A DNA stretch of 64,000 bases from Candidatus Poribacteria bacterium. Lineage in GTDB: Bacteria > Poribacteria > WGA-4E > WGA-3G. The DNA lies in contig JAJECK010000015.1 of the NCBI GenBank assembly GCA_022822085.1, forward strand, positions 25,782-89,781, given 5' to 3'. The position numbers were made by a program, and so were the translations under genes. The notes under the pieces were generated by a model, which worked only from the letters and a program-made list of their open reading frames with translations, did no database searches and was not told the origin of the DNA. Shown piece after piece: positions 14,026 to 62,847 of the stretch; positions within the stretch are counted from its first letter, which is position 1; each line of letters opens with the position of its first letter.

Positions 14026-14193
14026 AATTTACATTCATAGTATACTCCATATTCAATATCTTGTTGAACAAAGAATGGTGTGGTCTAATACCACACCATT
14101 TTACTATTAATCACGACTTGTGCTAAATAACCGTATGTAAAATATCATTTCACATAAGCAGGATTTTTGTCCGTGTTTTCATTTGTCCATAGG

Positions 14194-14690
14194 TTCTTTA
14201 GTCCCGTAGGGACGATATGTTTATAGTAGCACGTGCTATCCCTATGCTCTTAGTCCTGTCCGAAAATTAAAAAATAATTTAGGTCCTGTGGCGAGGTTAG
14301 GAAGAAATCAACGGGACCAATGCCATTTAGGCATTCCCCGCCTCGCCAGCAGGAGTACAACTGCCCTCACCCAGAAGGAAAAGATCATAAGTTAATCTTC
14401 ATCCAGTTTGCGCTCTTTGACGCACAAACTGGAAGTTTATGCTACAGACACACAAGGTTCCCCTCCTTCTGCTGGCGTGGTTTCCTAACCTCGCCACAGG
14501 ACCCGATTAAATTCTTAATCTTCATTAGAGACTATGTTTATAGCAAAACGTTGAACACAAGTTCTTTAGTCCCGTAGGGACGATATCTGTGTGCCAATGA
14601 AATAATTTTAATTAACATATCGTCCCTACGGGACTAAAGAGGTTTGAGTGACGTTTTTCTATAAACATATCGTCCCTACGGGACTGAAGA
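14194..14690. repeat. Cluster of four copies of a 30-bp interspersed repeat (CTTTAGTCCCGTmGGGACGATATGTTTATAG), including an inverted pair
   Basis: Copies lie at 14194-14226 and 14561-14590 in direct orientation, and at 14613-14640 and 14658-14690 in reverse complement. The same ~30-mer recurs at 29817, 33441, 44166/44213, 56316, 56606 and 62603/62651. The region also holds a copy of the tggcgaggttagga..cctcgcca palindrome (14290-14350, 14455-14500). Confidence 0.75.
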
Positions 14691-14827
14691 AGGACACTCA
14701 AAATCAAAATTCCTTAAGTTGACACCCGCTGAATGCCAAAAAGGCATTCATAGCGTTGATTTACGGGTTTCGTTCCTCAACCCAACGGACAAATTTGTTT
14801 TGTACAAAAACTTACATACCCCCATTT

Positions 14828-21078: not shown

Positions 21079-21822
21079 GTGAGTGAACCCGATGCATCAC
21101 GACCGGATGGTCATTCATACGATGTTGAGACAGAACTTTTACTTTGGTGGGAGGATTATTATTTACCTGTTTTTGAATATGTCCTCCCCAAAATGGGTGA
21201 TCTGCCAGGTAAACGTGTACTTGAGTTAGGCACTGGCACAGGTGGCACAGCAACACTTCTTGCCAAAAAAGGTGCCTCTGTTGTTGGAATTGATCTGTTG
21301 CCCTTTCGGTTAGATGAAGCGAAGGATAGGGTGAAACATCACAATGTCTCTGATTCGGTTGACTTTTCGCTCATGGATGCCACGCATCTTGCATTTCCAG
21401 ATAATACCTTTGATTTTGTAATCTCAAAATCCGTGTTAGTGTTTACTGAACACTCACTTACTGCAAAAGAGTGCTACCGTGTGTTAAAACCGGGTGGTAA
21501 GGCTATTTTCGTAGAGAATATGCAACATCACCCAGCAGTAAAACTGTACCGTAAGTTTTTCTTGAAATATTCTCAAGAATTGCATTACTTTTCACTATCC
21601 GATATTGAAGCGATTACCGTAGAATTTGATGGGATGGAACACAGAGAATTCCATCTTCTCTCTTTAGGTGCGCTATTTTGGCAAAAAGTTATCCCAATCT
21701 CTATCTTCTATCGGTGGACACTCCAAACTCTCAAATCTGTTGATAGATACTTACTACGTCTGTTTCCTTTCCTAAAACGAATCTGTTGGATCACAGCAAT
21801 GATCTGTAATAAAGAGGTCTAA
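21079..21822 (+). CDS. Class I SAM-dependent methyltransferase
   Basis: Motif I is VLELGTGTGGTATLLAKKGASVVGIDL. Motif II/III are spaced appropriately (VISKSVLVF... LKPGGKAIF). It uses a GTG start. Confidence 0.65.
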   Translation: MSEPDASRPDGHSYDVETELLLWWEDYYLPVFEYVLPKMGDLPGKRVLELGTGTGGTATLLAKKGASVVGIDLLPFRLDEAKDRVKHHNVSDSVDFSLMDATHLAFPDNTFDFVISKSVLVFTEHSLTAKECYRVLKPGGKAIFVENMQHHPAVKLYRKFFLKYSQELHYFSLSDIEAITVEFDGMEHREFHLLSLGALFWQKVIPISIFYRWTLQTLKSVDRYLLRLFPFLKRICWITAMICNKEV

Positions 21823-21885: not shown

Positions 21886-23883
21886 ATGAAAACAACAATT
21901 CCCATAATCACATTTATTCTTGTATTAGTAGGACACGCTTCTCTTGTTTTTGCACAAGATAACACACAAGTTGGTCTACCTGATGGTGCTATTGCGCGAC
22001 TTGGTAAAGGCGGGATCAACATAATGCGATTCTCACCAGATGGCAGCAAACTGGCAGTGGGTACGGATGTCGGAGTGTGGCTTTACGATGTGTCAGATGG
22101 AAATGCAACTGCCCTGTTCACAGATAAACCTGGTCAGGTCAACGCACTTGCATTTTCAAGTGATGAAAAAATACTTGCAAGTGGTGGACACGGAAACCCA
22201 TTCATACAACTGTGGAGCTTGGAGAACGGTACTAAACATTCTACACTGTTTTTTAAAAGCGAATTTAGATATGTTGTTGCCTTGGGATTTATTGGTAATA
22301 CACTTATAAGTTATGATAATAGTGGGAGAATTATTTATTGGAATATAAGCAATGGTGATATTTTAACAGAATTGGAAAAGGTGAATCCAAACCAAGCAGT
22401 TACATTTTCACCTACTACTAATCTTATTGCTGTAGCAGATAATTTACACAAAATACATATATATGATACTTCCTTAAGTGATAAGCATATTGTGTTTCAT
22501 GATGATGGATTAGATGAATTAAAAAAGGATATTTTTGCCTTAGCAATTACATCAAATAACAAAAAACTTGTAAGTGGCAGTGAGGACAAAGCAATTAGAA
22601 TTTGGGATATTGAAAAAAGGAAACTAACAACTTCTCTTAATGTCCATAAATCCACAATCACTTCTGTTGCCATATCACCTGATGACAAAATCCTTGCAAG
22701 TGGAGATGCCAGCAAAGAAATCATCCTTTGGGATGTTGATAATCCTAAAGAACTTAGGACATTATTAGGACACAAAAACACCGTTACTGCATTAGCATTC
22801 TCACCTGATGGTGCTGGCAAATATAGTGGTTGTCTTGCAAGTGGTAGCCATGATGGTACGATCCGGTTTTGGAACCCTGACACAGGTGAGAAACTTGTTA
22901 CTTTTGCTACGGGACATGCCAAATGGATTAAAACTATCGCCTTTTCTGAGAACGGGTCAACACTTGTGAGTGCTAACATGACTGGGAATGCAGTTGTTTG
23001 GAGTTTGAATAGCTATCAAGAAATTGGTAGTTTTACAAATGGAGAAAGCGACTATGCGGCTACAGTTGGATTCACCTCTGATGCTAAGCATTTTGTCTGT
23101 CAGGGGTTAAACGGATGGCAGTTTACGTTTAAGCCTTACGGTTTTGGGTATACCTCAAAAGACGGTGAAAATTATGAAGCACTTCCCCTAAGAATGTGGG
23201 ACATAACCACTCGTGAAGAAGTACAAGGTCCTTGGAATGAAAATTCATGTGATATACTTACATTTTCTGCTGATAACAAAATACTTGCTATCTATGGATC
23301 AGATAATGTATTGGGATGGAACATTGATTCTGCAGAAGAATTGTTTGATCTATCAACTGAGGATATATGGTTCATTGAACACATGGTAATATCGTCTGAC
23401 AATAAATACCTTGCTGTGTATGAATCCTCTGAGAAACTGTATATATGGAATTTAGAAAAACCAGAGGATCCGCCTGTCCAAACTAAATCGGATATTGACT
23501 CGTTGGCATTCTCTCCAGATGGTAATAGTATAGCAATATTGAGGAGTGGGAATATTTTCCTTCATGATATAGAGTCGTTCCCAGATGGTGAACCTGAAGA
23601 AATTCTTACAGACCTACACGGTCATGTAGCAAGAATGATCTTTTCTCCCGATAGTAAAATCCTGATATGCGCTGGATTTTCTGGTGTTATATCAAAAATT
23701 AGTATAAAGTTGTTGGATATGGAAACAGGTCAAGAAATTGGAAACCTTTCAGGACACTCGGAACTGATAGAGACACTCGCATTTTCTCATGATGGGAAAA
23801 TACTTGCCAGTGGCAGTTTTGATGGGACAATATTGCTATGGGATTGGGAAAAAATATCTAAAAGACAAGAAATGGTCAAATAG
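21886..23883 (+). CDS. Secreted WD40-repeat beta-propeller protein (paralog 1)
   Basis: It has a signal peptide. Multiple WD40 units have LASGS.D..I..W motifs. The N-terminal QVGLPDGAIARLGKGGIN block is shared with paralogs at 24393 and 44359. Confidence 0.75.
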   Translation: MKTTIPIITFILVLVGHASLVFAQDNTQVGLPDGAIARLGKGGINIMRFSPDGSKLAVGTDVGVWLYDVSDGNATALFTDKPGQVNALAFSSDEKILASGGHGNPFIQLWSLENGTKHSTLFFKSEFRYVVALGFIGNTLISYDNSGRIIYWNISNGDILTELEKVNPNQAVTFSPTTNLIAVADNLHKIHIYDTSLSDKHIVFHDDGLDELKKDIFALAITSNNKKLVSGSEDKAIRIWDIEKRKLTTSLNVHKSTITSVAISPDDKILASGDASKEIILWDVDNPKELRTLLGHKNTVTALAFSPDGAGKYSGCLASGSHDGTIRFWNPDTGEKLVTFATGHAKWIKTIAFSENGSTLVSANMTGNAVVWSLNSYQEIGSFTNGESDYAATVGFTSDAKHFVCQGLNGWQFTFKPYGFGYTSKDGENYEALPLRMWDITTREEVQGPWNENSCDILTFSADNKILAIYGSDNVLGWNIDSAEELFDLSTEDIWFIEHMVISSDNKYLAVYESSEKLYIWNLEKPEDPPVQTKSDIDSLAFSPDGNSIAILRSGNIFLHDIESFPDGEPEEILTDLHGHVARMIFSPDSKILICAGFSGVISKISIKLLDMETGQEIGNLSGHSELIETLAFSHDGKILASGSFDGTILLWDWEKISKRQEMVK

Positions 23884-24039
23884 AAAGTCTCAATAGATAA
23901 TACATGGGTGTGTAAAGTTTTTGTCACTTATCTGTCTGAACCCGGATTATTGCCAAATCAAAGGTCCGCATCATGGCGTATGCTGCTTTAGGCATTCCCG
24001 GATTTTACCGATTGCTCGGCTTATATGCCTGGAGATGCC

Positions 24040-24215
24040 AAGTTGTTTTGCGTCTGGGCGATAGTCCGTCTTTGTCCCGTCCGCTTCCAGATTGCGATTT
24101 TTTGTACCGTAATCTTCCAGATTGTGCAGTAGTGTGTGCGCAAACTGGAAGTGGACGGGACAAATGTGTGCAAGTAATTATAGATTCCACTATAATGGAA
24201 GGTGACTGAGTTTCA
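24040..24215. repeat. Composite ~170-bp structured repeat element (copy A) with a long imperfect hairpin and a conserved 3' tail
   Basis: It contains gtcccgtccgcttccag...ctggaagtggacgggac, a ~17-bp stem with one mismatch. It also has cttccagattg x2 and the tail acaaatgtgtgcaagtaattatagattccactataa. Homologous copies are at 35925-36110 and 62640-62830. Confidence 0.65.
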
Positions 24216-24392
24216 TGTGAAGACTCATCTATTTATTGAAGGCCGACGTTAATAAAAATTTAAAGCGACTATTTCCTTACTTAGTAGGTTCCTGTTGGAT
24301 TTCAGCAAACATCTATTCCAAATAGATTGAACTCCTGCATCATACCATATAAAATATTAGTAACACATAACATTTCAAATAAAATATCAACC

Positions 24393-26402
24393 ATGAAAAC
24401 ATCGTATTCTTTTTTCACCTTTATTCCTGTGTTAGTAGCAATAGTATCATCTGTTTTGGCAAGAGACAACACACAAGTTGGTCTACCTGATGGTGCTATT
24501 GCACGTCTTGGTAAAGGCGGAATCAATATAATGCAATTCTCACCTGATGGCAGCAAACTGGCAGTGGGAACAGATGTTAGTGTATGGCTATACGATGTGC
24601 CTGATGGAAATGCAACTGCTTTGTTCTCAGATAGTCCAGCGCAGGTTAACGCTCTTGCTTTTTCGAATGATGGAAAAATACTTGCAAGCGGAGGATATGG
24701 AAATCCTACCATACAACTGTGGAATTTGGAGGATGATACACTCCATTCTGACTTTATTCTTACAAGTAAGTCCAATTATGTAAATGCCCTTGTTTTTCAA
24801 GGGCAAATGCTCATTAGCTATGATAGAGTGGGTAACGTATCACGTTGGAATACCGATACTGGAATTATTTCTTCAGAATTGGTGAAAATACCAGCATTTC
24901 CAGCAATATTCTCACAAACAGGTAAAATTCTAACGGCTACAGACAGTTTAGGAAGAATTCACATATATGATACAATTACAAAAGAGAAATATTCAATACT
25001 TGCAGATGTTGAACTAAAAAAAGAATTGCAGTGTTTGAGTATAGCACCTAACGGTAAAACAATTGCATGCGGAGGCAGGGATAATATAATTAGATTATTG
25101 GAAATCGATAATGACAATAAGGTCCAATCATTAATTGGCCAAACAGCAGGAATAATTTCCATTGCTTTCTCCACTGATGGCAAAATTCTTGCAAGTGGTG
25201 ATTCAAATAAAGAAATTACAATCTGGGATGCTGAGAATACCAAGAAACTTAGAAAAATAAGTGGACACACAGGCACTGTAAATGCATTAGCATTTTCACC
25301 TGATGGGGCAGGTAAATATAGCGGTTGTCTTGCCAGTGGTAGCCTTGATGGAACAATCCGATTTTGGAATCCTAACACAGGTGAGGAACTTGTCAGCTTT
25401 GCTACAGGACATACGAAATGGATTAAAACTATCGCCTTTTCTGAGAACGGGTCAACACTTGTGAGTGCTAACATGACTGGAAATGTAGATGTGTGGAGTT
25501 TAAATGGTTATCAAGAAATAGCTACATTCGCGGATGGTGAATGTGATTATGCAGCTTCAGTTGCATTTACCAATGATGCTAAGTATTTTGTCTGCCAAGG
25601 GCTTAACGGCTATACGGTTACATTTGACTCCTACGGTTTTGGATATAAAACAAGAAGAAGTGATAATCTTGAAATACTACCTGTGCAAATGTGGGACATA
25701 ACCACTGGTGAAGAACATTACGGTCCTTGGAATAAGACATCAGGTAATTTATTGGCATTTTCACACGACAATAAAAATCTTGCCATCTATGGTTCTAAAA
25801 TATTGTTGGTTTGGAACACAGAAACTAAAGATGAATTGTTCAATACTGACACTGAGAAAATGTTTCGCATTGATGAGATGGTTTTCTCATCTGACAATAA
25901 AATGATTGCTTTATATGAAACATCAAGGAATGCTAAAATTTGGGATTTAGATAAACCAGATGAGCCATATATTCAAACCAAACATACAACAGATGCATTA
26001 GGGTTCTCTCCATGTGGAAGGTTTTTCGCTACATTAAAAGTAGGTGGTTTTTCATATCCTAAACCGGGAAAAATATTTATTCATATTTTAGATAGGTTTC
26101 CTGATGGCGAACCAATAGAAATTAGTGCCAATATCCACGGTTTTGAAAATAGATTAATCTTTTCTCCTGATAGCAAAACAATTGTTTGGGCAGGGACGTT
26201 AAATATGAGATCAAATGTTCGCATAAAATTATGGGATGTGGAAACTGGTGAAGAAATAAGAACATTATCTGGGCACACTGAACCTATAGAATCGCTTGCA
26301 TTTTCTCATGATGGGAAAATACTTGCCAGTGGCAGTTTTGATGGGACAATATTGCTATGGGATTGGGAAAAAATATCTAAAAGACAAGAAATGGTAAAAT
26401 AG
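24393..26402 (+). CDS. Secreted WD40-repeat beta-propeller protein (paralog 2, tandem duplicate)
   Basis: Architecture matches 21886..23883. The last ~130 nt, including the stop and ~25 nt of 3' flank, are nearly identical to paralog 1. A 50-nt internal block is identical (25430-25490 vs 22930-22990). The ATG at 24393 with a signal peptide is preferred over the tracker start at 24327. Confidence 0.75.
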   Translation: MKTSYSFFTFIPVLVAIVSSVLARDNTQVGLPDGAIARLGKGGINIMQFSPDGSKLAVGTDVSVWLYDVPDGNATALFSDSPAQVNALAFSNDGKILASGGYGNPTIQLWNLEDDTLHSDFILTSKSNYVNALVFQGQMLISYDRVGNVSRWNTDTGIISSELVKIPAFPAIFSQTGKILTATDSLGRIHIYDTITKEKYSILADVELKKELQCLSIAPNGKTIACGGRDNIIRLLEIDNDNKVQSLIGQTAGIISIAFSTDGKILASGDSNKEITIWDAENTKKLRKISGHTGTVNALAFSPDGAGKYSGCLASGSLDGTIRFWNPNTGEELVSFATGHTKWIKTIAFSENGSTLVSANMTGNVDVWSLNGYQEIATFADGECDYAASVAFTNDAKYFVCQGLNGYTVTFDSYGFGYKTRRSDNLEILPVQMWDITTGEEHYGPWNKTSGNLLAFSHDNKNLAIYGSKILLVWNTETKDELFNTDTEKMFRIDEMVFSSDNKMIALYETSRNAKIWDLDKPDEPYIQTKHTTDALGFSPCGRFFATLKVGGFSYPKPGKIFIHILDRFPDGEPIEISANIHGFENRLIFSPDSKTIVWAGTLNMRSNVRIKLWDVETGEEIRTLSGHTEPIESLAFSHDGKILASGSFDGTILLWDWEKISKRQEMVK

Positions 26403-26408
26403 AAAGGC

Positions 26409-26651
26409 TCAATAGATAATACATGCCCCACCGACACAGACACTTCCTGCTTTCTGCGTAACATCCCCTGCTACACTGTTTTCTTCTCCTGTTTCAAATT
26501 CTGAAATTAGAGATTCAGTTCTCTCAGTAGGTTTAGTAAGATTTATCTGTAAAGAGCCGTTTGTAGTCAGAGTAAATGTGCAGCCAGAGAATAGTATAGA
26601 AAATAAAAATACACACAGTAGTGTGATAGTAGGTATGTATTTGGATTTCAC
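26409..26651 (-). CDS. Small hypothetical lipoprotein
   Basis: It has a lipoprotein signal (LCVFLFSILFSGC). It is the last gene of the minus-strand selenoprotein cluster. The short length makes the call tentative. Confidence 0.3.
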   Translation of the reverse strand: MKSKYIPTITLLCVFLFSILFSGCTFTLTTNGSLQINLTKPTERTESLISEFETGEENSVAGDVTQKAGSVCVGGACIIY

Positions 26652-26655
26652 TAAA

Positions 26656-27768
26656 TTATACCTCTATTTTTTGAAGGTTCACTTGGTCAAGCGAGTTATT
26701 TCCTAATTCAAGTCCACTTGCTGATGTAATATGGTTTGCATATTTAGACATAGAACTTAATCCCATCTCCTCGCGTTTCTGATTGACAGTTTGAAGGATT
26801 AATACATCAAGGATAACCGGATCAGCACTTACAAACATTCCGCCAAATTGCCATGCACTTTCTGCGTGGTATGTCGGTCCGTGGTCAAACGAAGCCAACA
26901 ACCCATCAACGATATTCAGAACGACCTTATCCTTTATCACCTTATTTTCATAAATCTCGGCGATAGCAGGATTGCAGTAGAGCGGTCTGCCGTGGAATCT
27001 CCTCGTATTATCCACACTACCAAAAGCCATGTTCTTCAAACATCCGCTAACACCAGACATATCGTGATGCTTCAAGACAGGGACATTAATAACAACATCC
27101 ACCATTTCAGTAATGATACGAGAATAAAGGGAGCGAGTGCTTTCGTTTTCACGTCTTGTGATACTGTCCTTTTCGGTTTCATAGAAAACTTTATCGTCAT
27201 AACCTATGTCTTGTAAATTGGAAGCTAATGTTCGGACATCTCCTTCCTCGGTTCTAATAGGGAATCCTGCACTCAATAGGTGGTCTTCAAACCGGTCCCA
27301 AATGATAATTTGCTTTCTGAGAACACCTGCACTAAATAAAGCATCTACAATTTTATTTACAATGACAGAATGCGTGCTTAACTTTGGGCCAGCAAGTGGA
27401 TTGACTTTTATGCCTACTATATGATCAGGCAAAACAAAGTCTCTCCATGCTTCTTTTGCTGTTTCACGACCGGTAAGTTTAACCATAGCCTGATCCAGCA
27501 TATACGCTACAGCCTCTTCATTAAGTCTATCATCTTCCCACACCTGTTTCCCAAGAACTTCTACGACAGGAGTTAAATTCTCTTTCTGTGTTGGAGGTGT
27601 GAGAACCCGTCCCCCGATTTGTGCAATAGCGGGAAGTGTGGATAGTGCAGCACCACTAACAACCCCAATCGTCGTGAGGAATTCACGACGATTGAACTTG
27701 TTTCGTTGGGACACTGTCTCTTCACAGTCTGACAAGATGTTCGCTATAACCTTATCGTGAGGCTTCAT
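26656..27768 (-). CDS. Tat-signal periplasmic protein, DUF362-like
   Basis: It has a twin-arginine signal (NRREFLTTIGVVSGAALSTLPAIAQ). It is 370 aa. Its ATG overlaps the TAA of the upstream selenoprotein gene by 1 nt (TAATG), implying translational coupling. The family assignment is from memory of overall features and is low confidence. Confidence 0.45.
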   Translation of the reverse strand: MKPHDKVIANILSDCEETVSQRNKFNRREFLTTIGVVSGAALSTLPAIAQIGGRVLTPPTQKENLTPVVEVLGKQVWEDDRLNEEAVAYMLDQAMVKLTGRETAKEAWRDFVLPDHIVGIKVNPLAGPKLSTHSVIVNKIVDALFSAGVLRKQIIIWDRFEDHLLSAGFPIRTEEGDVRTLASNLQDIGYDDKVFYETEKDSITRRENESTRSLYSRIITEMVDVVINVPVLKHHDMSGVSGCLKNMAFGSVDNTRRFHGRPLYCNPAIAEIYENKVIKDKVVLNIVDGLLASFDHGPTYHAESAWQFGGMFVSADPVILDVLILQTVNQKREEMGLSSMSKYANHITSASGLELGNNSLDQVNLQKIEV

Positions 27769-28370
27769 TAGAGTTTACCTAATTCTGATAGGATGGTTGC
27801 AGTAGGTACACGTGAAGCAAAAGAATCTAACGACTTCCATGCAACTGTCCCATCCTGAGCAATAATATACGCTGATGGTCTTGCTATTGTTTCGTCAGTT
27901 TGATCAAGGACATTATATGCGTTAATTACATCTTTGTTAGTGTCTGCAAGTACGGGATACGTGAGTCCTTCTTTCTCAGTAGTGTTCTTTGTAAGACTTA
28001 CATTTTCAGAACTTATTGCGAATAGTTCTGTCCCAGTGTCTTTTATGTTTTCGTAATTTTGTTGCAACTCAACGAGTTGCGAGGTGCAAAGTCCTCAGCC
28101 GCCTGTTCGGTAGAAAACGATTACTACATTTTTTCCATTATCAAGATGTTCGGATAGTGTGTGTAAATTCTCAAACCCATCAGACAGTTCAAAATCTGGA
28201 GCATGTGTGCCAATCACTAAACCCTCACCTAATTCAGTTTCGGATTCGGTTATAGGCGTTGTCACTGTTTCTGTATCTTTAGTTTCATTTATCGGATCAT
28301 CTGATGTCCCACAACCAAATACGCCTATAAGTAACAATGCTAATGTAAGGAAAGTTAATTTTTTATTCAT
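27768..28370 (-). CDS. Selenoprotein: TlpA/ResA-like thiol:disulfide oxidoreductase lipoprotein (thioredoxin fold, redoxin family) with a UxxC active site. The Sec codon is the TGA at 28095-28097.
   Basis: Two tracker ORFs (28095..28451 and 27768..28067) share a frame and are separated only by TGA. Read-through gives ...VVIVFYRTGG-U-GLCTSQLVELQQNYENIK... U aligns with the first Cys of the WCxPC/CxxC motif of TlpA/ResA/Prx-like proteins. Downstream similarity to ResA (..YPVLADTNKDVINAYNV) supports this. A lipoprotein signal (LLLIGVFGCG) starts at the ATG at 28370, with an RBS (aaaggaa). A hairpin sits 14 nt 3' of the UGA. Confidence 0.7.
28064..28080 (-). promoter_or_regulatory. Putative bacterial SECIS stem-loop for selenoprotein 1
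   Basis: The mRNA reads GCAACUC-GUU-GAGUUGC, a 7-bp perfect stem with a G/U loop. It starts 14 nt after the UGA and lies within the codons for SQLVELQ. Confidence 0.6.
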
Positions 28371-28439
28371 ATCATGTATTCCTTTCAAGGATTTTAGTAA
28401 TCCTTGCCTTAATATTTTAACGTGAGTTTGATAATAAAA

Positions 28440-28545
28440 TCCAATAACCACGTAGGTTGGGTTGAGGAACGAAACCCAACATGGAGTGATCTAAAGTGAG
28501 TAAAGATGTTGGGTTCCGTTCCTCAACCCAACGGACACAGACTTA
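28440..28545. repeat. Hairpin-forming REP/MITE-like repeat (same family as 8961-9048) between selenoprotein genes 1 and 2
   Basis: The inverted repeat is acgtaggttgggttgaggaacgaaacccaacat...atgttgggttccgttcctcaacccaacggac. Confidence 0.7.
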
Positions 28546-28575
28546 TGTTTAGAATTATCAAACTCACATTAGGAG

Positions 28576-29706
28576 TTACCAAAGCTTACTCAACTCCTTC
28601 ATAATTCGTGTTGTTGGTACTCGTTTGTCAAATGTATCTATTGATTTCCATACGACTGTGCCATCAGATTCAAGAAGAAATGTAGACGGATTGAGTGCAC
28701 CTGTATCTACTGGAACTTCTACATTGAAAGGTTTGACTGCATCAAGGTTTGTATCAGAAAGGACAGGAAATTCAAGATTTTCTCTATTGACTGTTATTCT
28801 TGTTGCTGGTACATCTTGTATACTAATAGCAAATATTTCAGCATTATCTGCTTTTATTCTATCATAATTATCTTGCAACTCACCGAGTTGCGTTACGCAT
28901 GCAGCTCAGGCACCACCTATGTAAAAGACGACGATAGCATTTTTCCCTTCATCAAGTGTATCGTAAAGTGAATGTAGTTTTCCATTCCCATCAGGCAACT
29001 CAAATTCTGGTGCTTTAGAAAATATTGGTAAACCTTCCCCTGGTTCCTCGGGTTCAACTTCTCTATCACCGATCCCAATTGGTGATAACTTTACATTTAA
29101 TTTCTCAGTCTCATTTGCATCTAAAGGCTTCACTGAGAGATCGTAGACTTCATAATCGGCAGCTTCTATTGTCAAGGTAAACTTCTGTTGAGTCGGAAGA
29201 TTATCAAAATTGAAGATACCCTCATCGGAGGTAATAGTCTCGTCCTGTTTTCCATCTTGATCAGTAAGTTGTACGCGTATCTCAGGTAGTCGTATTCCAG
29301 TTCTGTTGTTCCGAACAAGTCCTATAATATGTGAAACAGGATATGACAATTCTTCAAGTGTGATAGTATCCAACGTAACTGTTTCACCAGCAATAACATT
29401 CACGTTGAATTCCATCTCCTGAAATCCTCGTGCTGAAATACGTAACGTGTAATTTCCTGCTTCAATTTTTCTGAGTGTGAAACCTCCAGTACTTTCCATC
29501 TGCGCGACAACTTTACCGTCTTTTAATAAACGGACCTTGATTGTCCCATCAACGTTTGGTTGTACTTTACCGTGTATAACACCAGTTGTGGTCTCTATTT
29601 CCGGTATTTCACTGACAGGATTTTCTACTGTCTCACATCCAAAGGCAGTTAGGAGTAGTAAGGGAATTGTGAGGAATGTAAATAATCGTCTCATTTTTTT
29701 CTCCAA
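28576..29706 (-). CDS. Selenoprotein: CarboxypepD_reg-like domain + TlpA/ResA-like thioredoxin-fold lipoprotein with a UxxC site. The Sec codon is the TGA at 28906-28908.
   Basis: Tracker ORFs 28906..29706 and 28576..28878 are in frame across a single TGA. The read-through is ...NAIVVFYIGGA-U-AACVTQLGELQDNYDRIK... It has a lipoprotein signal (LLLLTAFGC). The N-terminal ~150 aa resemble a carboxypeptidase-regulatory-like beta-sandwich (GVIHGKV...G.YTLRISARGF). A hairpin sits 14 nt after the UGA. Confidence 0.7.
28875..28891 (-). promoter_or_regulatory. Putative bacterial SECIS stem-loop for selenoprotein 2
   Basis: The mRNA reads GCAACUC-GGU-GAGUUGC, starting 14 nt after the UGA and lying within the TQLGELQ codons. 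Confidence 0.6.
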
Positions 29707-30107
29707 TTGTATATTAATTATTAATATAGTAACGTCTTATGCTAAATAATTATTTGTAAAACATTGTTATACATAAAGAGGAGGATTTGACCGTATATCT
29801 TTGCTTTGGATGATCTTTAGTCCCATCCGGACGATATGTTTATATGTTAAATCCATTTTATGCGAATACAATACAAACAAATAGTTAACTGACACAAGTC
29901 GTTATAGTAAATTTATTTTATCGAGTTACATTTGACATAGTTCAATTTAAGTGATTTATAGCAGTTTTTAGAATTGATTGGACATTAGGGAATTGTCGGA
30001 GGGAACTCCGATTCCCAACTATCATTGAGTTAAGTCTCGATTCGGAGACCGCTCCTACAGAATATGAAAAGTCATGAAAATAAAACACAACATCAATACA
30101 TCTCACA

Positions 30108-31214
30108 TTATAACTTCCCTAACTGGTCAATAATATCTTCATTTGGAACACGATGCCCTAAACGTTCATCAAGGAATGTCCATGCCACTATACCATTCCG
30201 ATTTAGTATAAAAGTGGCAGGACGTGCGATATGTTTGTTGTTTGGATCAACGACATTATAATCGGCGATCATCTTCTTTTCACTATCAGCGAGTACAGTG
30301 AACTTTAGTCCTTCTTTATCAACTGTTTGCTTTGATGAAGCCACGGTATCAGAACTAATTGCTATGAGTTCTGCACCTTTAGCTTTGATTTTTGCGTAGT
30401 CATCTTGCAACTCTCCGAGTTGCGAAACACAGAAAGGTCACCACCCTCCACGATAAAAGACTATGACTAACTTGGTGTCTCCGATAAATTCATCAAGCGA
30501 ACGTACTTGGTTGTTGCTGTCTGACAGTTCAAACCCTGGAGCTTGACTGCAGTCGATTAGTCCATTACCCGGATCTAAATCCACATTTTCACGAATCATT
30601 GATGTAAGTTTTACATCTATTTCAAAAGTGTTGCCAGCTTCAATTGCATCCACTGTTTGATCATACATCTCGTAACAAGTATGGGTGATTGATAGTGTGA
30701 AAGCATTATCAGCAGGTAGATTTTCAAAAATAAAGGTTCCGTCATCAGAAGTCAAGGTTTCATATTCTTGACCCGATGTTTCTGTAAGTTTAATTAGGAT
30801 ATTGGATAACGGATTGCCTGTTTCTTCATCAGTTAATTGACCATTCAAATGTGCAATAGGTTCTTCTAATGGTGAGAGTGTTACTTTATCAAGCACATAA
30901 GTTTCACCTGCAACAATATCGACTTTAAGTTCTGTTGTTTCATAACCTTTTGCGGATATTTCTACAGTATATTCGCCCTTTTCTATCTCACCCAGATCAT
31001 AATTTCCTACAGAATCAGCTTGTGCGATGAGTTGACCATCTTTCAGAAGACGAACATGAATTGTAACTCCTTCGATCTCTTCAACCTGTACCTGAAGTTT
31101 ACCTGATTCTAACTGAACTTCGTCAATTTTATCAATCGGATCTTCAGTTGATCCACAATTCAGTCCAACCAATATTAACAAAGCCAATGCAATGAGTGCC
31201 ATTGTCTGTTTCAT
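30108..31214 (-). CDS. Selenoprotein: CarboxypepD_reg-like domain + TlpA/ResA-like thioredoxin-fold lipoprotein with a W-U-P-F-C site. The Sec codon is the TGA at 30438-30440.
   Basis: Tracker ORFs 30438..31271 and 30108..30410 are in frame across a single TGA. The read-through is ...KLVIVFYRGGW-U-PFCVSQLGELQDDYAKIK... WUPFC mirrors the thioredoxin WCGPC motif. The probable start is the ATG at 31214 (MKQTMALIALALLILVGLNC lipoprotein signal) with an RBS (aaggaaa). A hairpin sits 14 nt after the UGA. Confidence 0.7.
30407..30423 (-). promoter_or_regulatory. Putative bacterial SECIS stem-loop for selenoprotein 3
   Basis: The mRNA reads GCAACUC-GGA-GAGUUGC, starting 14 nt after the UGA. The flanking uuuc/aaga can extend the stem with one mismatch. 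Confidence 0.6.
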
Positions 31215-31288
31215 GATTATATGTTTCCTTAATCTTATCTTTACTTCACTGTTTTTCAATACCTTCGCCAATAATTAACGGACTTCCA

Positions 31289-31362
31289 GATTGTGCATAT
31301 TGTAGCACATTCATCCTTGATTGTGCATATTATAGCACATTCATCCTTGATTGTGCATATAA
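31289..31362. repeat. Tandem direct repeat, 30-bp unit x ~2.5 (gattgtgcatattgtagcacattcatcctt)
   Basis: Exact tandem copies lie immediately upstream of the selenoprotein-3 start. The unit shares the cttccagattgtgca motif with the composite repeat element at 24040. Confidence 0.7.
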
Positions 31363-31625
31363 CCTTTATTGTCAGTCTGCTGAAAAGTCATTTCTATTGT
31401 CAAATCAGGATCTATGACAATTAAAAACGCTTCAGCAAAAATCTCAAACTATTAATAATCATGTAATCCTACAATATCACAAATCAATGGAAGAACAACA
31501 CTGTATTCTCATTATGCTGAAGCATTAAAAAATGGCGAAGGTATTGATTTTTATAAAGAGATACTATTTTGTAAATTGATATTATTTTGTAGGTAGGTGA
31601 GACAAATCACCTACAACAATGAAAC

Positions 31626-32432
31626 CTAATGGGACGCACGTTGTTTAATAGTTCCCCAAGTCGTGGTCAATTTATCTTGTGCTTCAACAGAAGTTATATT
31701 CACAAGACCGTCAGACATAATAGAATTTATATCGTCTTCAGTCAAGGCGACGTTATAGAGTGCAACTTCATCAATGATCCCATTTGTATATCGGTCAAAA
31801 TGTCTTCCGATATGAAACACACCTTCAGCCGTTCCGTATCCATCATCGGTATTGAAATCGACTGCAGCTTCCATTTTGCCATCAATCCAAATAGATGCTT
31901 TACCGGTATCGGTATTCGCTACACCAGCAACAAAATGCCAATTGTCATCACCAATTTCTGTTGTGCTCTGAGGTCTGAAACTGGTATTACCACTATCGCG
32001 TAAGAAGAAAGTTACCTTGTTATCGCCACCACCGTTCCAAATCATGTACCACGGTGTTGCTTGAGATTTATCTTCATAATTCTTTCCTGCAAGTGAACCA
32101 CCGACCTTCGTTCCTTTGAAATGTGCAGTGAGAGAAAAGGATGTTCCAGACTCAAATGCTACGGTATCGGAATGTGCAACTTCAACCCAATCGTCTGTTC
32201 CATCAAATTGAAGTGCTTTCCCAAATTTTCCATCAACCCAGGTTGCCCCGTGTATTTGACCTTCATTATCTTGACTTGATGAATCACCTGCTACTGTGCC
32301 TGCACCTTCATCAAAAAGCCATAATCCAGTGATATTCTCATATCCATATTCAGCAAAACTTGGATATGCTATTAGTAAAGCGAGACCTATAAACAAAGTT
32401 AACGTAAATCCAAAATATTTCATATTGTCCAT
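31626..32432 (-). CDS. Secreted LamG/concanavalin-A-like lectin-fold protein carrying the conserved C-terminal tail
   Basis: It has a signal peptide (FTLTLFIGLALLIAYPSFA). It is a paralog of 32441..33238 (shared WLFDEGAG..DSS..N.G...GA.WVDG.FGKAL.F.GTDDWVEV.HSDTV.F..GTSFS...H.KG). It ends ...VEAQDKLTTTWGTIKQRASH. Confidence 0.6.
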   Translation of the reverse strand: MDNMKYFGFTLTLFIGLALLIAYPSFAEYGYENITGLWLFDEGAGTVAGDSSSQDNEGQIHGATWVDGKFGKALQFDGTDDWVEVAHSDTVAFESGTSFSLTAHFKGTKVGGSLAGKNYEDKSQATPWYMIWNGGGDNKVTFFLRDSGNTSFRPQSTTEIGDDNWHFVAGVANTDTGKASIWIDGKMEAAVDFNTDDGYGTAEGVFHIGRHFDRYTNGIIDEVALYNVALTEDDINSIMSDGLVNITSVEAQDKLTTTWGTIKQRASH

Positions 32433-32440
32433 ATCCTTTC

Positions 32441-33238
32441 TTATTGTAATTGTCGTTTAATCTTACCCCATGTTGTTGTAAGTTTACCAACAGCAGCGAC
32501 TGCTGCTGCTTCTTCCAAACCATTATTCATAATCGTATCCATTTCATCTTCACTCAAGGCAACATTAAATAGTCCAACATCATCAATGATTCCTTTAGTA
32601 TAACGGTCAAAGTGCCTTGCGATGTGAAAGACACTATCATTCGTACCGTAACCTTCAGAAACATCTAATGTGTCTTCCTGATTCTTTTTACCATCTATCC
32701 ACAAGGATATTTTTTTTGCATCTGCATCTGCAACTGCAGCGATAAAATGCCATTTTTCATCTGAGACAGGCACGGTACTATCTATTTTTGAATTCTTATC
32801 TGCTGAGGTGCGAAGATAGAAAGAAACATTTTGGTCTTGACCACCGTTCCAAAGCAGATACCAAGGTTTGACCTGTGATGTATCTTCATAGCCTTTGCCA
32901 ACAAGTGAACCTCCTACTGCTGAACCTTTGTAATGAAGTGTAATAGAAAAGGAAGTTCCCTTCTTAAACCCAACAGTATCTGAATGTTGAACTTCTACCC
33001 ACCCATCAGTACCATTAAATTCAAGTGCTTTGCCAAATTGACCGTCTACCCATTTTGCTCCGCCTATAACTTTTCCATCATTGCCATTACCAGATGAATC
33101 ATTTGCTTTATCACCGTTCCCTTCGTTAAAAAGCCACATCCCCATAATGTTGTCTGCATTTAAGGCAGCTTGTGACGGAAGGATAAGGAAACAGAATGTA
33201 ATTAGACAGAGTACAAAAATAAATAATATTCTCATCAA
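32441..33238 (-). CDS. Secreted LamG/concanavalin-A-like lectin-fold protein carrying the conserved C-terminal tail
   Basis: It has a signal peptide. It is paralogous to the downstream gene. It ends ...AAVGKLTTTWGKIKRQLQ. Confidence 0.6.
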   Translation of the reverse strand: MMRILFIFVLCLITFCFLILPSQAALNADNIMGMWLFNEGNGDKANDSSGNGNDGKVIGGAKWVDGQFGKALEFNGTDGWVEVQHSDTVGFKKGTSFSITLHYKGSAVGGSLVGKGYEDTSQVKPWYLLWNGGQDQNVSFYLRTSADKNSKIDSTVPVSDEKWHFIAAVADADAKKISLWIDGKKNQEDTLDVSEGYGTNDSVFHIARHFDRYTKGIIDDVGLFNVALSEDEMDTIMNNGLEEAAAVAAVGKLTTTWGKIKRQLQ

Positions 33239-35924: not shown

Positions 35925-36110
35925 CTATACGATTGTTATTATCTTATAGTAGAATCCAAAAATATATACACACTTTTGGTACGTTAAACCTAAACCGCTG
36001 GACTGTGCCGTAGCACAAACTTTCCAGTTTGTGCAGTAGTGTCTGCGCAAACTGGAAAGTTTGCGGTACAAATGTGTGCAAGTAATTATAGATTCCACTA
36101 TAATATCTAC
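35925..36110. repeat. Composite ~170-bp structured repeat element (copy B)
   Basis: It shares atagtagaatccaaaaatatatacacacttttgg..cgttaaacctaaaccg, then the long hairpin caaactttccagtttg..(16-nt loop)..caaactggaaagtttg, then the tail acaaatgtgtgcaagtaattatagattccactataat. It aligns with 62640-62830 and 24040-24215. Confidence 0.7.
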
Positions 36111-44358: not shown

Positions 44359-46431
44359 TTAAGGGTTTAACTTCTGTTTGATAGATTCCCAATCCCACAG
44401 GATGACAGTACCATCTCTACTTGCAGTGGCTAAAGTCTTTCTATCTGGAAAGAACGCTAAATCGTTGACCAAATCGGTATGTCCTTTGAGGATATTCGAG
44501 ACGTTGAATGTACGTGTTTCCCGCACTTGTATTGTCCCGTTAGATCCACCACTAACAATGCTTGTATCATCAGGAGAAAACCGTAGACATCTACAGACTT
44601 CATTAGTACGACCTGAAGATATTCGCTCACCTGATGACACATCCCAGATATAAATTTCATCATAACTCATACTTGCCAATGTTTTTCCACTTGGTGAGAA
44701 TACTAACCTACGTATTGCATTTTTCTGTCCAGTTAGTGTAAGCCGTTTAGTCCCCTTTTCTATGTCCCAAAGGTGAATTATCTTGTCTTTGCCACCACTC
44801 GCTAATAGGTCTCCATTCGGTGATAGTGCCAATGTACTAAGAGAACCTGTAGAGCCATTAAGAGTGTAGACCGGTGCTATCGTCTTGACATTAGTCAACA
44901 GTCTTTTCAATATAGGTTTTGTCTGGATCGGAATGTTCCATATATGAAACTTACCGATTTGTTCATTCTGAGTTGCAGTTGCTAATCTATTCCCTACATT
45001 AGAGAATACAAAAGTTGGTATCTTATATGGGGGAACTTCAATCCCAGTTATAGTCAATCTCTTCCTTTTTTCGGAGGTGTCCCACAGTTCATAAGTATTT
45101 TCAGGACTCCAATCCTTTATTACAACATACTTTGCATCTGATGAAATTGCAAGAGGGGTTTCCCAGTTGAAGAAAGTTCCTGTCAAGTGATGGCCGACAT
45201 TGGTGTCCCAATTCTGTATTTGATAATTCATAAAATGCCCAGTTATTAGAGCATTATTCTCCTCCGAAATGGCTAAATTAACGACTTCTGATGCATGTCC
45301 CGAACAAGCAAGTTGCTGTCGACCAGTGTTAGCATCCCAAACCCGAATTGTACCATCTTTGCTGCCTGTAAGAAGTCTATTTCCATCAGGTGAATATGTT
45401 ATGTCTGAGATTGTGTATTTATGTCGAGTGAGTCTTTGCTTGGGAAAGAAACGTCTTATTTTTCCAAGCCAACCTTGTTGTTTTGCTGTGGCATCCCATA
45501 GATATATACTCCCATCGTGCCCACCACTAACAAGGGTTTTGCCATTCGGTGAAAATGCAAGCGCGGAAAAACTTATAGGTGCTTTGAACGATACCTGTGA
45601 TTCCTGTGTATCCATATTCCATAACTTGATAGTCCGAAAGTTATCACCACTTGCAAGTGTCTTACTATCTGGCGAAAAAGCTAAGGATTGAATAGACCGT
45701 TCATGTCCCGATAGTGTGAACAGAAGCTTAGAATTAGCCGTGTCCCATAAATGGATTGGAGTTTTTCTCTTTGAGCGGTGTTTTGACACTGCTAAGGCAA
45801 GAAAGCGTCCATCAGGTGAAAGTCCAATTACTGGACTATGTGTATCCTCAAAATCGAAATTTATACTCTTTATTTCGATCGGTTTTGGTGCTGACCGTTC
45901 ATTAAAACGCAAATGGACTATTTTATTCTGCGCCCTGCTTACACCTACCATCTCAGGACGATCTGCAGATAAGAGAACTGATGAATACTTGCTTTTTTCA
46001 ATAACAATAATGGTTTGGAGTTCACCAGTATCTGCATCCCATTGTACTATCTTTCCTCCTGAAACTGCTCCAATCAGTGTACTGCCATCCACTGAAAACA
46101 TTACTCCCTTAACATTCTGTCTATCTCCTTTTAATAGTGAAATCTCTGTTCCAGTCTTTGCATCATACATCCAGATGCCAATCGTGGTTGCCACTGCAAA
46201 CCAATTACCGTCGGGTGAAAATTTGATGTCATTTATACTGCCTTTACCTAAACGTGCTTTTGCACCTTCAGGTAACTGCCATCGGGAGTAGTTTACATTT
46301 GATGTAGGGAATGTCAATTCTATTGTATCACGATTCATCAACCTTCTGACGAATAATATCGAAGCAAGAACTGCAAGTATAGATATAAGAATCACTATGA
46401 GTATAGCAAAAGAGCGACGAGATAATTTCAT
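44359..46431 (-). CDS. Secreted WD40-repeat beta-propeller protein (paralog 3)
   Basis: It has an N-terminal TM/signal. WQLPEGAKARLGKGSINDIKFSPDGNWFAVATTIGIWMYDAKTG parallels the N-termini of paralogs 1 and 2. Many WD40 units are present (LASGS.D.TI.LWD). Confidence 0.7.
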   Translation of the reverse strand: MKLSRRSFAILIVILISILAVLASILFVRRLMNRDTIELTFPTSNVNYSRWQLPEGAKARLGKGSINDIKFSPDGNWFAVATTIGIWMYDAKTGTEISLLKGDRQNVKGVMFSVDGSTLIGAVSGGKIVQWDADTGELQTIIVIEKSKYSSVLLSADRPEMVGVSRAQNKIVHLRFNERSAPKPIEIKSINFDFEDTHSPVIGLSPDGRFLALAVSKHRSKRKTPIHLWDTANSKLLFTLSGHERSIQSLAFSPDSKTLASGDNFRTIKLWNMDTQESQVSFKAPISFSALAFSPNGKTLVSGGHDGSIYLWDATAKQQGWLGKIRRFFPKQRLTRHKYTISDITYSPDGNRLLTGSKDGTIRVWDANTGRQQLACSGHASEVVNLAISEENNALITGHFMNYQIQNWDTNVGHHLTGTFFNWETPLAISSDAKYVVIKDWSPENTYELWDTSEKRKRLTITGIEVPPYKIPTFVFSNVGNRLATATQNEQIGKFHIWNIPIQTKPILKRLLTNVKTIAPVYTLNGSTGSLSTLALSPNGDLLASGGKDKIIHLWDIEKGTKRLTLTGQKNAIRRLVFSPSGKTLASMSYDEIYIWDVSSGERISSGRTNEVCRCLRFSPDDTSIVSGGSNGTIQVRETRTFNVSNILKGHTDLVNDLAFFPDRKTLATASRDGTVILWDWESIKQKLNP

Positions 46432-48745: not shown

Positions 48746-49885
48746 ATGAAAGAGAAACAATCTGGTGAGTCTATACAAGAATCTGAAGAACAAATAGACG
48801 CAGAGACAGACGGTGCAGATGAGAAACCGGATATATATGCATCAATACAACATAGATTTAATGATTTACGGAGTGAATATCTTGATGCCCGGTCAAAATC
48901 TATCAACAGATGGTTAGCATTTATATGCATTGTGCTACTATTTTTTACTATACTCATTCCGATTATAACAGGTATTGCTGCGTATTTTATCTATGATCGG
49001 TTTGGCGACCTCCAGGAACAGATGTTGATACATGTGAAAACGGCAGAAAAACATTCATCGGATTCTGCTAAAAATGCCGCTGAAGCTGCGAAATTCCTTA
49101 AGGAAATTAAGGGACATAATAGGACAGTCAAGGGAATAGTAACTAAATTAACGAGTAAGGATTTCACAAATCCGAATAAAGTAGAGATTTTACAATCTAC
49201 TATAGAAGATATATTAAGAAATCCAGCAATTTCTCTTGAAGACAAGGCAATCATTGAAGCGTATAGACTGCAGAGAGCAGGGAATATAGCAGAGGCTATC
49301 GAGAAATGGCGTTCTATCGCTAACACTGCTAAAGGTGTAAATAATGAATTGGTTGCCCGTGCGTTCTTTTCAATGGGTTATCTCCATTCGCAGCAAGACG
49401 AAAAGGATCAGGCTATTTCCGCTTTTGACAAAGCAATTGAGATGATGCCAACTTTTGCGGATGCTTATACCAGTCGTGGTGTTGTAAGGAGTTCACTCGG
49501 TAATCTTGAGGAGGCTATTGCTGACCACAGTGAAGCAATACGCTTGAATCCGAATTTGGTTGAGGCGTATATCAATCGTGGCACGGCTAAACGCTCTCTA
49601 AATCAGCATGAGGCAGCGATTTCAGATTTTGATGAAGCGATACGATTGGATGCAAATTCGGCTGTGGCTTGGACATTACGCGGTGTGTCTAAGGGTGCAC
49701 TTGGACGACACCAGGAGGCAGTTGCTGACCATAATGAGGCAATTCGACTCAAACCCAATTATGTTGATGCCTATATCAATCGTGGATCAGCGAAACGTGC
49801 GCTTGGTGACCATGAGGGTGGGAAGAAGGATATGGATAAGGCTTTGGATTTGGCTCAGGAGTTGAAGGTGAGTGGCGGAGAGTGA
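48746..49885 (+). CDS. TPR-repeat protein with an N-terminal transmembrane anchor
   Basis: The TM is WLAFICIVLLFFTILIPIITGIAAYFI. At least five canonical TPR units follow (AYTSRGVVRSSLGNLEEAIADHSEAIRLNPN; AYINRGTAKRSLNQHEAAISDFDEAIRLDAN; ...). Confidence 0.6.
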   Translation: MKEKQSGESIQESEEQIDAETDGADEKPDIYASIQHRFNDLRSEYLDARSKSINRWLAFICIVLLFFTILIPIITGIAAYFIYDRFGDLQEQMLIHVKTAEKHSSDSAKNAAEAAKFLKEIKGHNRTVKGIVTKLTSKDFTNPNKVEILQSTIEDILRNPAISLEDKAIIEAYRLQRAGNIAEAIEKWRSIANTAKGVNNELVARAFFSMGYLHSQQDEKDQAISAFDKAIEMMPTFADAYTSRGVVRSSLGNLEEAIADHSEAIRLNPNLVEAYINRGTAKRSLNQHEAAISDFDEAIRLDANSAVAWTLRGVSKGALGRHQEAVADHNEAIRLKPNYVDAYINRGSAKRALGDHEGGKKDMDKALDLAQELKVSGGE

Positions 49886-62594: not shown

Positions 62595-62830
62595 ACCATC
62601 CTTAGGCCCGTCCGGACGATATGTTTATAGATCGCGCATGTACACGGTCCCTTTAGTCCCGTCCGGACGATATGTTATAGTATAATCCAAAAATATATAC
62701 ACACTTTTGATTCGTTAAACCTAAACCGTAGGACTGTGCTGTACCATAAACTTCCAGTTTGTGCAGTAGTGTGTGTGCAAACTGGAAAGTTCACGTTACA
62801 TAGGTGTGCAATTAATTATAGATTCCACTA
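62595..62830. repeat. Two copies of the 30-bp interspersed repeat followed by the composite ~170-bp structured element (copy C)
   Basis: The repeat copies ccttaggcccgtccggacgatatgtttatag and cctttagtcccgtccggacgatatgttatag are at 62603 and 62651. The element follows at 62682-62830 and aligns with 35940-36110. Confidence 0.7.
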
Positions 62831-62847
62831 TAAAACTAAATACCCTG

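Follow-up and report, generated by a model that had tools for sequence, protein, structure and literature searches.

Mosaic tandem WD40 genes in a probably recombination-prone chromosomal slot of Candidatus Poribacteria

Two neighbouring WD40 repeat genes of Candidatus Poribacteria, here called A and B, share short stretches of nearly identical nucleotide sequence within bodies that have otherwise diverged strongly. They lie in a window of 64,000 nucleotides (nt), the whole stretch of DNA that was analysed, which comes from a 107-kb metagenome scaffold (KELL22-1_SAMN22237337 scaffold_236). We consider it likely that A and B are old types of one exported, double WD40 propeller gene that occupies a recombination-prone slot, in which tracts of the genes become homogenised and gene bodies are exchanged. 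The types are anciently diverged and mosaic, their copy number differs between genomes, the homogenised tracts have sharp borders, and a double propeller is the predicted fold. Gene A (21886-23883, + strand) is an open reading frame (ORF) whose translation gives 665 amino acids (aa) of the A-type; gene B (24393-26402, + strand) is its B-type paralog, with 669 aa counted from the ATG, although the mechanical ORF begins upstream at TTG 24327. The genes stand head to tail with a gap of 509 nt and their proteins are 60.6% identical. The slot is bordered on the left by a class I S-adenosylmethionine (SAM) methyltransferase gene (21079-21822, + strand) and on the right by a DUF362 gene (26656-27768, - strand), both assigned by Pfam.

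Exact runs and identities were taken from the nucleotide alignment of A and B. The most extensive shared sequence is a 3′ homogenised tract of 128 nt, with two mismatches, which covers the final 105 nt of the coding sequence and 23 nt of flank (23779-23906 in A and 26298-26425 in B, + strand, the same evidence applying to both copies); within it, 98 nt are identical without interruption (23779-23876 / 26298-26395). Similarity continues to 23906/26425, that is 23 nt beyond the stop codon, and there ends abruptly. A mid-gene tract is an exact run of 65 nt (22921-22985 in A and 25416-25480 in B, + strand), and a 5′ exact run of 35 nt (21961-21995 in A and 24468-24502 in B, + strand) falls inside the conserved N-terminal block; a fourth run, of 23 nt, lies at 22039-22061 / 24546-24568. 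Outside the tracts nucleotide identity is 45-70%. Degenerate codons are identical between the genes in 28 of 28 cases within the last 30 codons and in 23 of 25 within the mid tract, against a background of 30-60%. The original prediction, made from the letters of this DNA before any of these comparisons, had described tandem secreted WD40 paralogs with patches of identity separated by diverged sequence, and this picture stands: both proteins match Pfam WD40 (E = 1e-57 for A), both N-termini look like signal peptides by inspection, and the sequence between the tracts is indeed diverged. Its measurements needed adjustment. Instead of about 130 nt plus about 25 nt of flank, the 3′ identity has the extent given above; the mid-gene identity, put at about 50 nt (22930-22990 / 25430-25490), is present but longer and lies slightly upstream; and a supposedly identical 5′ 38-mer exists with one mismatch in B (GAT versus GAC).

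Fourteen other places with the same slot came to light through protein searches and contig look-ups. By their flank genes, four of the loci form a cluster at about 95% nucleotide identity (the window, L001, L007 and L009); within it L007 and L009 are 97-98% identical in these genes, and the flank genes of other species are 76-90% identical to those of the window. A Sawyer-type permutation was run on the polymorphic sites of a 12-sequence alignment with 3000 shuffles. The 3′ fragment spans 35 polymorphic sites, or 21 when third codon positions only are counted, and in neither case did any of the 3000 shuffles produce a fragment as long. For the mid fragment the corresponding figures are 30 sites (0 of 3000 shuffles as long) and 15 third-position sites (p = 0.005). 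The 5′ run was not significant in this test, with p = 0.07 for all sites and 0.5 for third positions. Significant results were also obtained for A/B pairs from different genomes of the ~95% cluster; distant single-copy A/B pairs gave no significant fragment at third positions.

Phylogenetic discordance is clear in the 3′ tract, weaker in the mid tract and absent from the 5′ tract. Between 23600 and 23778 there are 57 type-specific sites, at which A goes with the A-types and B with its ortholog in L007, and none private to A and B. Between 23779 and 23906 no type-specific site is left and eight sites are common to A and B but found in none of the four closest relatives. Here gene B falls to 91% identity with the L007 ortholog, which it matches at 99-100% elsewhere over the body. 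The two tandem genes of L001 likewise both carry a private Phe-to-Tyr change in the same tract. The mid tract holds one private shared site, a G-to-A change at 22933 that replaces Ala by Thr (KWIKTIAFS, where ten of ten other sequences read KWIKAIAFS), and three sites at which B leaves its L007 ortholog and agrees with A. These patterns indicate that the 3′ tract is homogenised by recombination within this genome, and that the mid tract probably is. The 5′ tract, with 14 type-specific sites, no private shared sites, third-position A/B identity (0.71) at the between-species level (0.53-0.67) and an N-terminal protein block that is near-invariant across the whole family, is for these reasons not evidence of conversion, and protein-level constraint accounts for it. 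A nucleotide-level functional element in this tract was considered and rejected, as third-position identity decays with distance from 0.71 to 0.36.

When the 5′ and mid tracts are taken more broadly, synonymous divergence (dS) between A-type and B-type genes is 0.33-0.59, which is about the between-species level and two to three times below that of the variable regions. These broad tracts have thus been homogenised across types at the level of the population, not specifically in this genome. The claim that the patchy identity reflects ongoing gene conversion thus survives in part: it holds for the 3′ tract with its eight private sites and probably for the mid tract, it fails for the 5′ run, and it does not account for much of the patchiness, the A/B dS of the same tracts being equally low across genomes.

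The age of the two types is apparent from their variable regions, where the dS separating A-type from B-type genes is 1.0-1.6 irrespective of the genomes chosen; flank genes differ by a dS of 0.10-0.28 within the ~95% cluster and 0.5-0.8 between species. Gene B is 61% identical in aa to A and 59-60% identical to the single-copy genes of other species, and B-type orthologs are present in species (L011 and L012) whose flanks are only 76-87% identical. On these comparisons, A and B are old, deeply diverged types of one gene. What the slot contains varies from genome to genome between borders that are largely constant: of the 14 related loci covering the slot, 13 have the methyltransferase gene in synteny (it is missing upstream of the gene in L010 and L014), and all have the DUF362 gene, L014 included. 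The window has A and B. L001, a 6.2-Mb single contig from a long-read-style assembly, has two A-type genes, the second of which sits in the position of B and carries 32 nt of the upstream sequence of A. A single chimeric gene occupies the slot of L007, with the upstream region and putative signal peptide of A (95-97% identical) fused to a B body, and one A-type gene that of L009. Single A-type genes are found in L002-L004, L013 and L015, single B-type genes in L011 and L012, and in L014 the slot gene is interrupted by insertion sequences. The nearest relatives of gene A are the second tandem gene, A2, of L001 (92.5% nt identity) and the L009 gene (91.7% nt).

Some of these loci show further peculiarities. 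The first tandem gene of L001 (7096-9089) is frameshifted after about codon 33 and lacks 12 nt ahead of the stop; it is either a pseudogene or the product of sequencing error in the long-read assembly. In L014 (1-8242, from a 6.4-Mb Poribacteria genome) the WD40 gene lacks its 5′ half and stands beside transposase genes (DDE_Tnp_4, UPF0236); among the neighbours is an 868-aa protein in which WD40 repeats occur together with sigma-70 regions 2 and 4. At least three family members stand in a row in a distant Poribacteria genome whose proteins are 44% identical (L005 3416-7995 and L006), from which we conclude that tandem arrays are common in this WD40 family. In one pair of these only the 5′ tract is 87-93% identical in nt, with an exact run of 44 nt.

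Gene type does not follow the flank tree: L007 is B-type and L009 A-type, despite flanks that are 97-98% identical. The ortholog of gene B in L007 (P0013) is 94.9% identical in nt overall, but over the body of B (~24840-26260) the dS is 0.02, one tenth of that in the flanks of the window and L007 (0.17-0.22, with ~95% identity), and the 5′ end of the L007 gene follows A, not B. The simplest reading is that the B body moved recently between lineages by crossovers in the conserved tracts. The A-type alleles of the cluster are themselves mosaic, four-taxon informative sites being split 46/11/16 in clustered runs. Taken across the loci, the main process at this one chromosomal slot appears to be exchange of gene bodies among strains together with change in copy number.

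The sequence between the tandem genes retains traces of their origin. Downstream homology between A and B ends at 23906, and the spacer (23907-24247) consists of repeat elements, among them a 26-nt inverted repeat (24071-24096 / 24139-24164, 92% complementary) and a segment (24103-24196) that is found again at 36022-36104 and 62740-62833. The source annotation places a 78-aa gene at 23973-24209 (+ strand), overlapping the inverted repeat; it has no family and is probably spurious. Positions 24191-24283 match the inter-gene spacer of L001 at 91% over 92 nt, and the two tandems are for that reason probably of single origin. An exact-pattern scan of Joint Genome Institute (JGI) metagenome contigs for the shared spacer segment gave no matches, and so no further tandem loci. 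Upstream of B, at 24248-24339 (+ strand), lies a decayed relic of the 3′ end of a methyltransferase gene and its intergenic region. It is collinear with 21739-21805 at an offset of 2509, weakly so (score 29 against a null maximum of 27), and when it is aligned locally to the 3′ end of the L002 methyltransferase gene the score is 73 (null maximum 27); L011 and L012 match as well. Together with the border at 23906/26425, the relic implies a duplicated unit that started within the methyltransferase gene and extended 23 nt beyond the stop codon, and gene B seems to have kept its native upstream sequence. The relic is closer to the L002 and L011 versions than to the methyltransferase gene of the window itself, which is a hint that a foreign B allele was captured; the haplotypes of the flanks, however, are mosaic as well, and this weakens any argument for capture that is built on the relic. 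Other short intergenic repeat elements occur in the window at 14182-14783 and 29814-29901, and in spacers of related loci (L001 9272-9546 and 18471-18956; L009 7837-7982). These elements look like small mobile or repetitive extragenic palindromic (REP)-like elements and are located at rearrangement junctions.

An AlphaFold model of the gene A protein, for which 66 homologs were used, consists of beta structure throughout; it has about 57 strands, and hence about 14 blades, at a mean confidence (predicted local distance difference test, pLDDT) of 85.7 and a predicted template modelling score (pTM) of 0.83. Its best structural matches are tandem double propellers, and the predicted fold is a 14-blade double WD40 propeller. 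The N-terminus of A reads MK-TTIPIITFILVLVG-HASLVFA/QDNTQ and that of B ...SSVLA/RDNTQ, both signal-peptide-like by inspection only; the model has a helix at residues 4-18 and a low-confidence linker at 15-27, and at least 90% of the 66 family members keep A23, D25, N26 and T27. Export by way of a cleaved signal peptide is therefore a plausible route for A and B. The protein A model ends directly after the last blade, and no match to the C-terminal sorting domain TIGR04183 was found at E <= 0.01 in A, B or C in NCBIfam. The conserved tracts correspond to residues ~25-105, 291-375 and 621-665. Judged from the strand list of the model, not from its coordinates, they would map roughly to blades 1-2, 7-8 and 14, at either end and where one propeller meets the other, and the variable parts would be roughly blades 3-6 and 9-13. 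The ratio of nonsynonymous to synonymous divergence (dN/dS) is 0.3-0.6 in the variable parts for most pairs; it falls to 0.1-0.2 in the tracts, and the flanking genes have 0.03-0.14. Such values suggest relaxed or diversifying pressure on the variable parts and fall short of proving positive selection. Most likely A and B act as putative binding scaffolds outside the cytoplasm.

Gene C (44359-46431, - strand) is a distant family member of 690 aa in the same window, with a hydrophobic, membrane-anchor-like N-terminal segment that is longer than those of A and B. As had been predicted it keeps the N-terminal block (LPEGA.ARLGKG.IN..FSPDG is common to A, B and C), even though overall it is only 26-28% identical to the other two. 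Its orthologs are 96% and 81% identical in aa where the best matches of A reach 88% and 73%; gene C takes no part in the A/B recombination and evolves more slowly. Scores against PF00400 (cut-off 27 bits) are 190 for A, 172 for B and 230 for C, with five to six matched stretches apiece. None of the three was assigned to a family by NCBIfam, and only generic WD40 matches came from searching solved structures by sequence. At least 2866 cluster representatives match gene A at E <= 1e-20.

These observations can be drawn together in a model in which a conserved frame (blades 1-2, 7-8 and 14) would alternate with two variable bodies (blades 3-6 and 9-13) and would supply nucleotide similarity long enough for homologous recombination. 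One outcome would be non-reciprocal copying between tandem genes of one chromosome, giving the 3′ tract and probably the mid tract; another, replacement of gene bodies between strains through crossovers inside the conserved tracts; a third, gain and loss of copies. Diversity of the variable blades may be favoured because these blades bind a changing partner. The main competing idea is that purifying selection alone accounts for the shared stretches, the tracts encoding the most constrained blades and recombination being unnecessary. Throughout the family, in single-copy genomes and the distant Poribacteria array alike, the protein sequence of all three blocks is indeed conserved, the tracts have the low dN/dS already mentioned, and the permutation result for the 5′ run is what such selection would give. 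It does not explain why every degenerate codon near the 3′ end is identical, why identity runs on into 23 nt of non-coding flank, or why 57 type-specific sites give way to none just where eight private shared sites appear; nor does it fit third-position tests that are significant for the 3′ and mid tracts and not for distant A/B pairs, or a dS that in the tracts is only a half to a third of that in the variable regions. For the 3′ tract purifying selection alone is already refuted, and for the pattern as a whole we think it unlikely. We are somewhat more sceptical still of an assembly artefact, by which strains with A and B alleles would have been stitched into a false tandem, or similar tracts collapsed in a short-read assembly. 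The source is a metagenome scaffold, strains with a single A-type or single B-type gene exist in related samples, and the B body is nearly identical to that from another sample. Against this, the 486-nt spacer is unique, the methyltransferase relic and the putative B-type signal peptide are not found in single-copy loci, and the single contig of L001 is also tandem, with a homologous spacer segment. Moreover, if B carried the L007 haplotype, the longest A/B run in the 3′ tract would be 47 nt, which would leave a k-mer graph little to merge.

The tandem layout, the relic of the methyltransferase gene ahead of B and the unit border common to both genes (23906/26425) might also be taken as signs that the tandem duplication was recent and that B then diverged very fast, with the tracts left over as the undiverged remainder. 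However, synonymous sites in the variable regions of A and B are saturated, far above the flank divergence within the cluster, and B-type orthologs exist in species with clearly diverged flanks. The variable-region dS, together with the comparable distance of B from A and from the single-copy orthologs of other species, excludes fast divergence after a recent duplication, and we attach almost no probability to this history. Scarcely more credible is a dedicated variation system like those of pilin or vlsE, in which an expressed gene is rewritten at high frequency from neighbouring donors. Segmental and apparently one-way copying anchored in conserved tracts, the frameshifted tandem copy of L001 as a possible silent donor, and tandem arrays of the family in other Poribacteria would be compatible with such a system. 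But there are two copies only, both copies in the window are full length, each has a start codon and a putative signal peptide of its own, preceded by about 150 nt of native upstream sequence, and it is the conserved parts that have been copied, the opposite of what cassette systems do, with variable regions that stay 45-70% identical. The reading of A and B as old types in a recombination-prone slot remains the one we favour, although several points weigh against it. Because the window is part of a metagenome scaffold, graph simplification or polishing could have sharpened the perfect identity of the tracts. The private 3′ haplotype occurs in part in L012 and L013, so an outside source may have supplied it to one copy, from which the other then took it. 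For the 5′ and broad mid tracts, the within-genome A/B dS (0.47-0.59) is not below that between genomes (0.33-0.52), and most of the patchiness is therefore not recent ectopic conversion. As to the order of events, repeated loss after an old tandem duplication competes with the capture of a foreign allele, and the relic upstream of B leans towards capture. Finally, the sole variable-region dN/dS above 1 is 1.27 (36.5 nonsynonymous versus 7.5 synonymous differences), which an informal comparison with the site counts (N = 434, S = 112) does not distinguish from neutrality.

Poribacteria WD40 genes are numerous and their roles obscure, and the A/B slot marks one of them as unusually dynamic: genomes that are about 95% identical differ in both copy number and gene type, and bodies move between lineages. 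The locus reveals which blades are fixed and which vary, as well as which samples carry which type, and is a candidate for encoding a protein that faces a changing partner. We would venture only tentatively that the slot holds a long-lived balanced polymorphism of A and B, kept across Poribacteria species and mobile via crossovers in the conserved tracts. If so, this WD40 protein would be under frequency-dependent selection from phage, grazer or animal host, and the variable blades (~3-6 and 9-13) would form its recognition surface. There is also a practical caution, in that short identical tracts in tandem paralogs can mislead metagenome assembly and ortholog calling.

Long antisense ORFs overlap all three WD40 genes (22497-22979, 24302-24775 and 24959-25474 on the - strand; 45269-45691 and 45716-46291 on the + strand) and share one stop-poor register relative to the sense frame. 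Those in A and B are at homologous positions and are open in nearly all orthologs, distant ones too. Codon-shuffled genes average 115-129 open antisense codons where 171-199 are observed, a mild excess (P = 0.05-0.065 each). We rejected these ORFs as genes, given that they have no family match and that their register is already long under codon shuffling. The suggestion that they are artefacts was sound in that respect, but codon composition, not the repeats, seems to be the cause, with the mild excess remaining.

The wider window has a G+C content of about 40%, scans with Rfam and for tRNA genes gave no matches, and in protein searches Candidatus Poribacteria was the origin of all named relatives of its proteins. 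Downstream of the DUF362 gene, 27769-33238 (- strand) holds an array whose units pair small AhpC/TSA-like redoxin genes with CarboxypepD_reg-like genes, after which come two Laminin_G_3 paralogs. The number of units in the redoxin array varies among close relatives (the window, L001, L007, L009, L013 and L014); the counterpart of 28420-30019, for example, is missing from L009. A 379-aa tetratricopeptide repeat (TPR) gene lies at 48746-49885 in the window and, in L007 (2-811), directly upstream of the equivalent of window position 14824 (94.8% identical). From this placement it follows that the window and L007 differ by a rearrangement of about 34 kb, one end of which falls within the repeat-rich 14182-14783.

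Ectopic gene conversion between tandem bacterial paralogs is well established for the duplicated tuf genes and for families of outer-membrane protein genes. The A/B locus resembles these cases in its short, synonymous-identical tracts between diverged neighbours, its sharp breakpoints and its variants common to paralogs but not to orthologs. It differs from typical ectopic conversion in that A and B are anciently diverged types which are also alternative alleles of one slot among strains, and in that their mosaicism comes mostly from exchange between strains, not from copying within a genome. In this respect it recalls the allelic dimorphism with mosaic recombination at loci for surface proteins, such as pneumococcal pspA and Neisseria opa and por. 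Like them it has two deep classes that depart from the genome tree, conserved segments that flank variable ones and serve as crossover points, and closely related strains that hold different classes. Unlike them, it encodes a WD40 double propeller in an uncultured phylum, and both classes can occur in tandem. Systems of cassette antigenic variation (pilE/pilS, vlsE, tprK) have an expression site with promoterless, partial silent cassettes, which A and B do not, and copy variable regions, whereas the tracts copied between A and B are conserved. The abundance of WD40 domains in Poribacteria, often with export signals, has been described, and many of the genes bear a C-terminal sorting domain for Por secretion (Kamke et al., 2014; PMC3909097). 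A, B and C, unlike many of those genes, lack a sorting domain in NCBIfam, and that study gives no account of recombination or of allele classes at a locus; our literature searches likewise turned up nothing on this locus and nothing on recombination among the WD40 genes of Poribacteria. In structure, the predicted protein A resembles 2ymu from Nostoc and proteins of the WDR3/Utp12 type in having two stacked or adjacent propellers with about 14 blades; Foldseek gives E = 5.5e-38 for 2ymu, and TM-scores reach 0.71 for chains of the WDR3 type. The 2ymu and WDR3-type proteins, however, are cytoplasmic or nuclear scaffolds with only 14-26% sequence identity to A, whose N-terminus is signal-peptide-like, and we do not carry functional inference over from them. 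The locus is a new example, in an unstudied family, of processes that are well known, and it involves no new mechanism.

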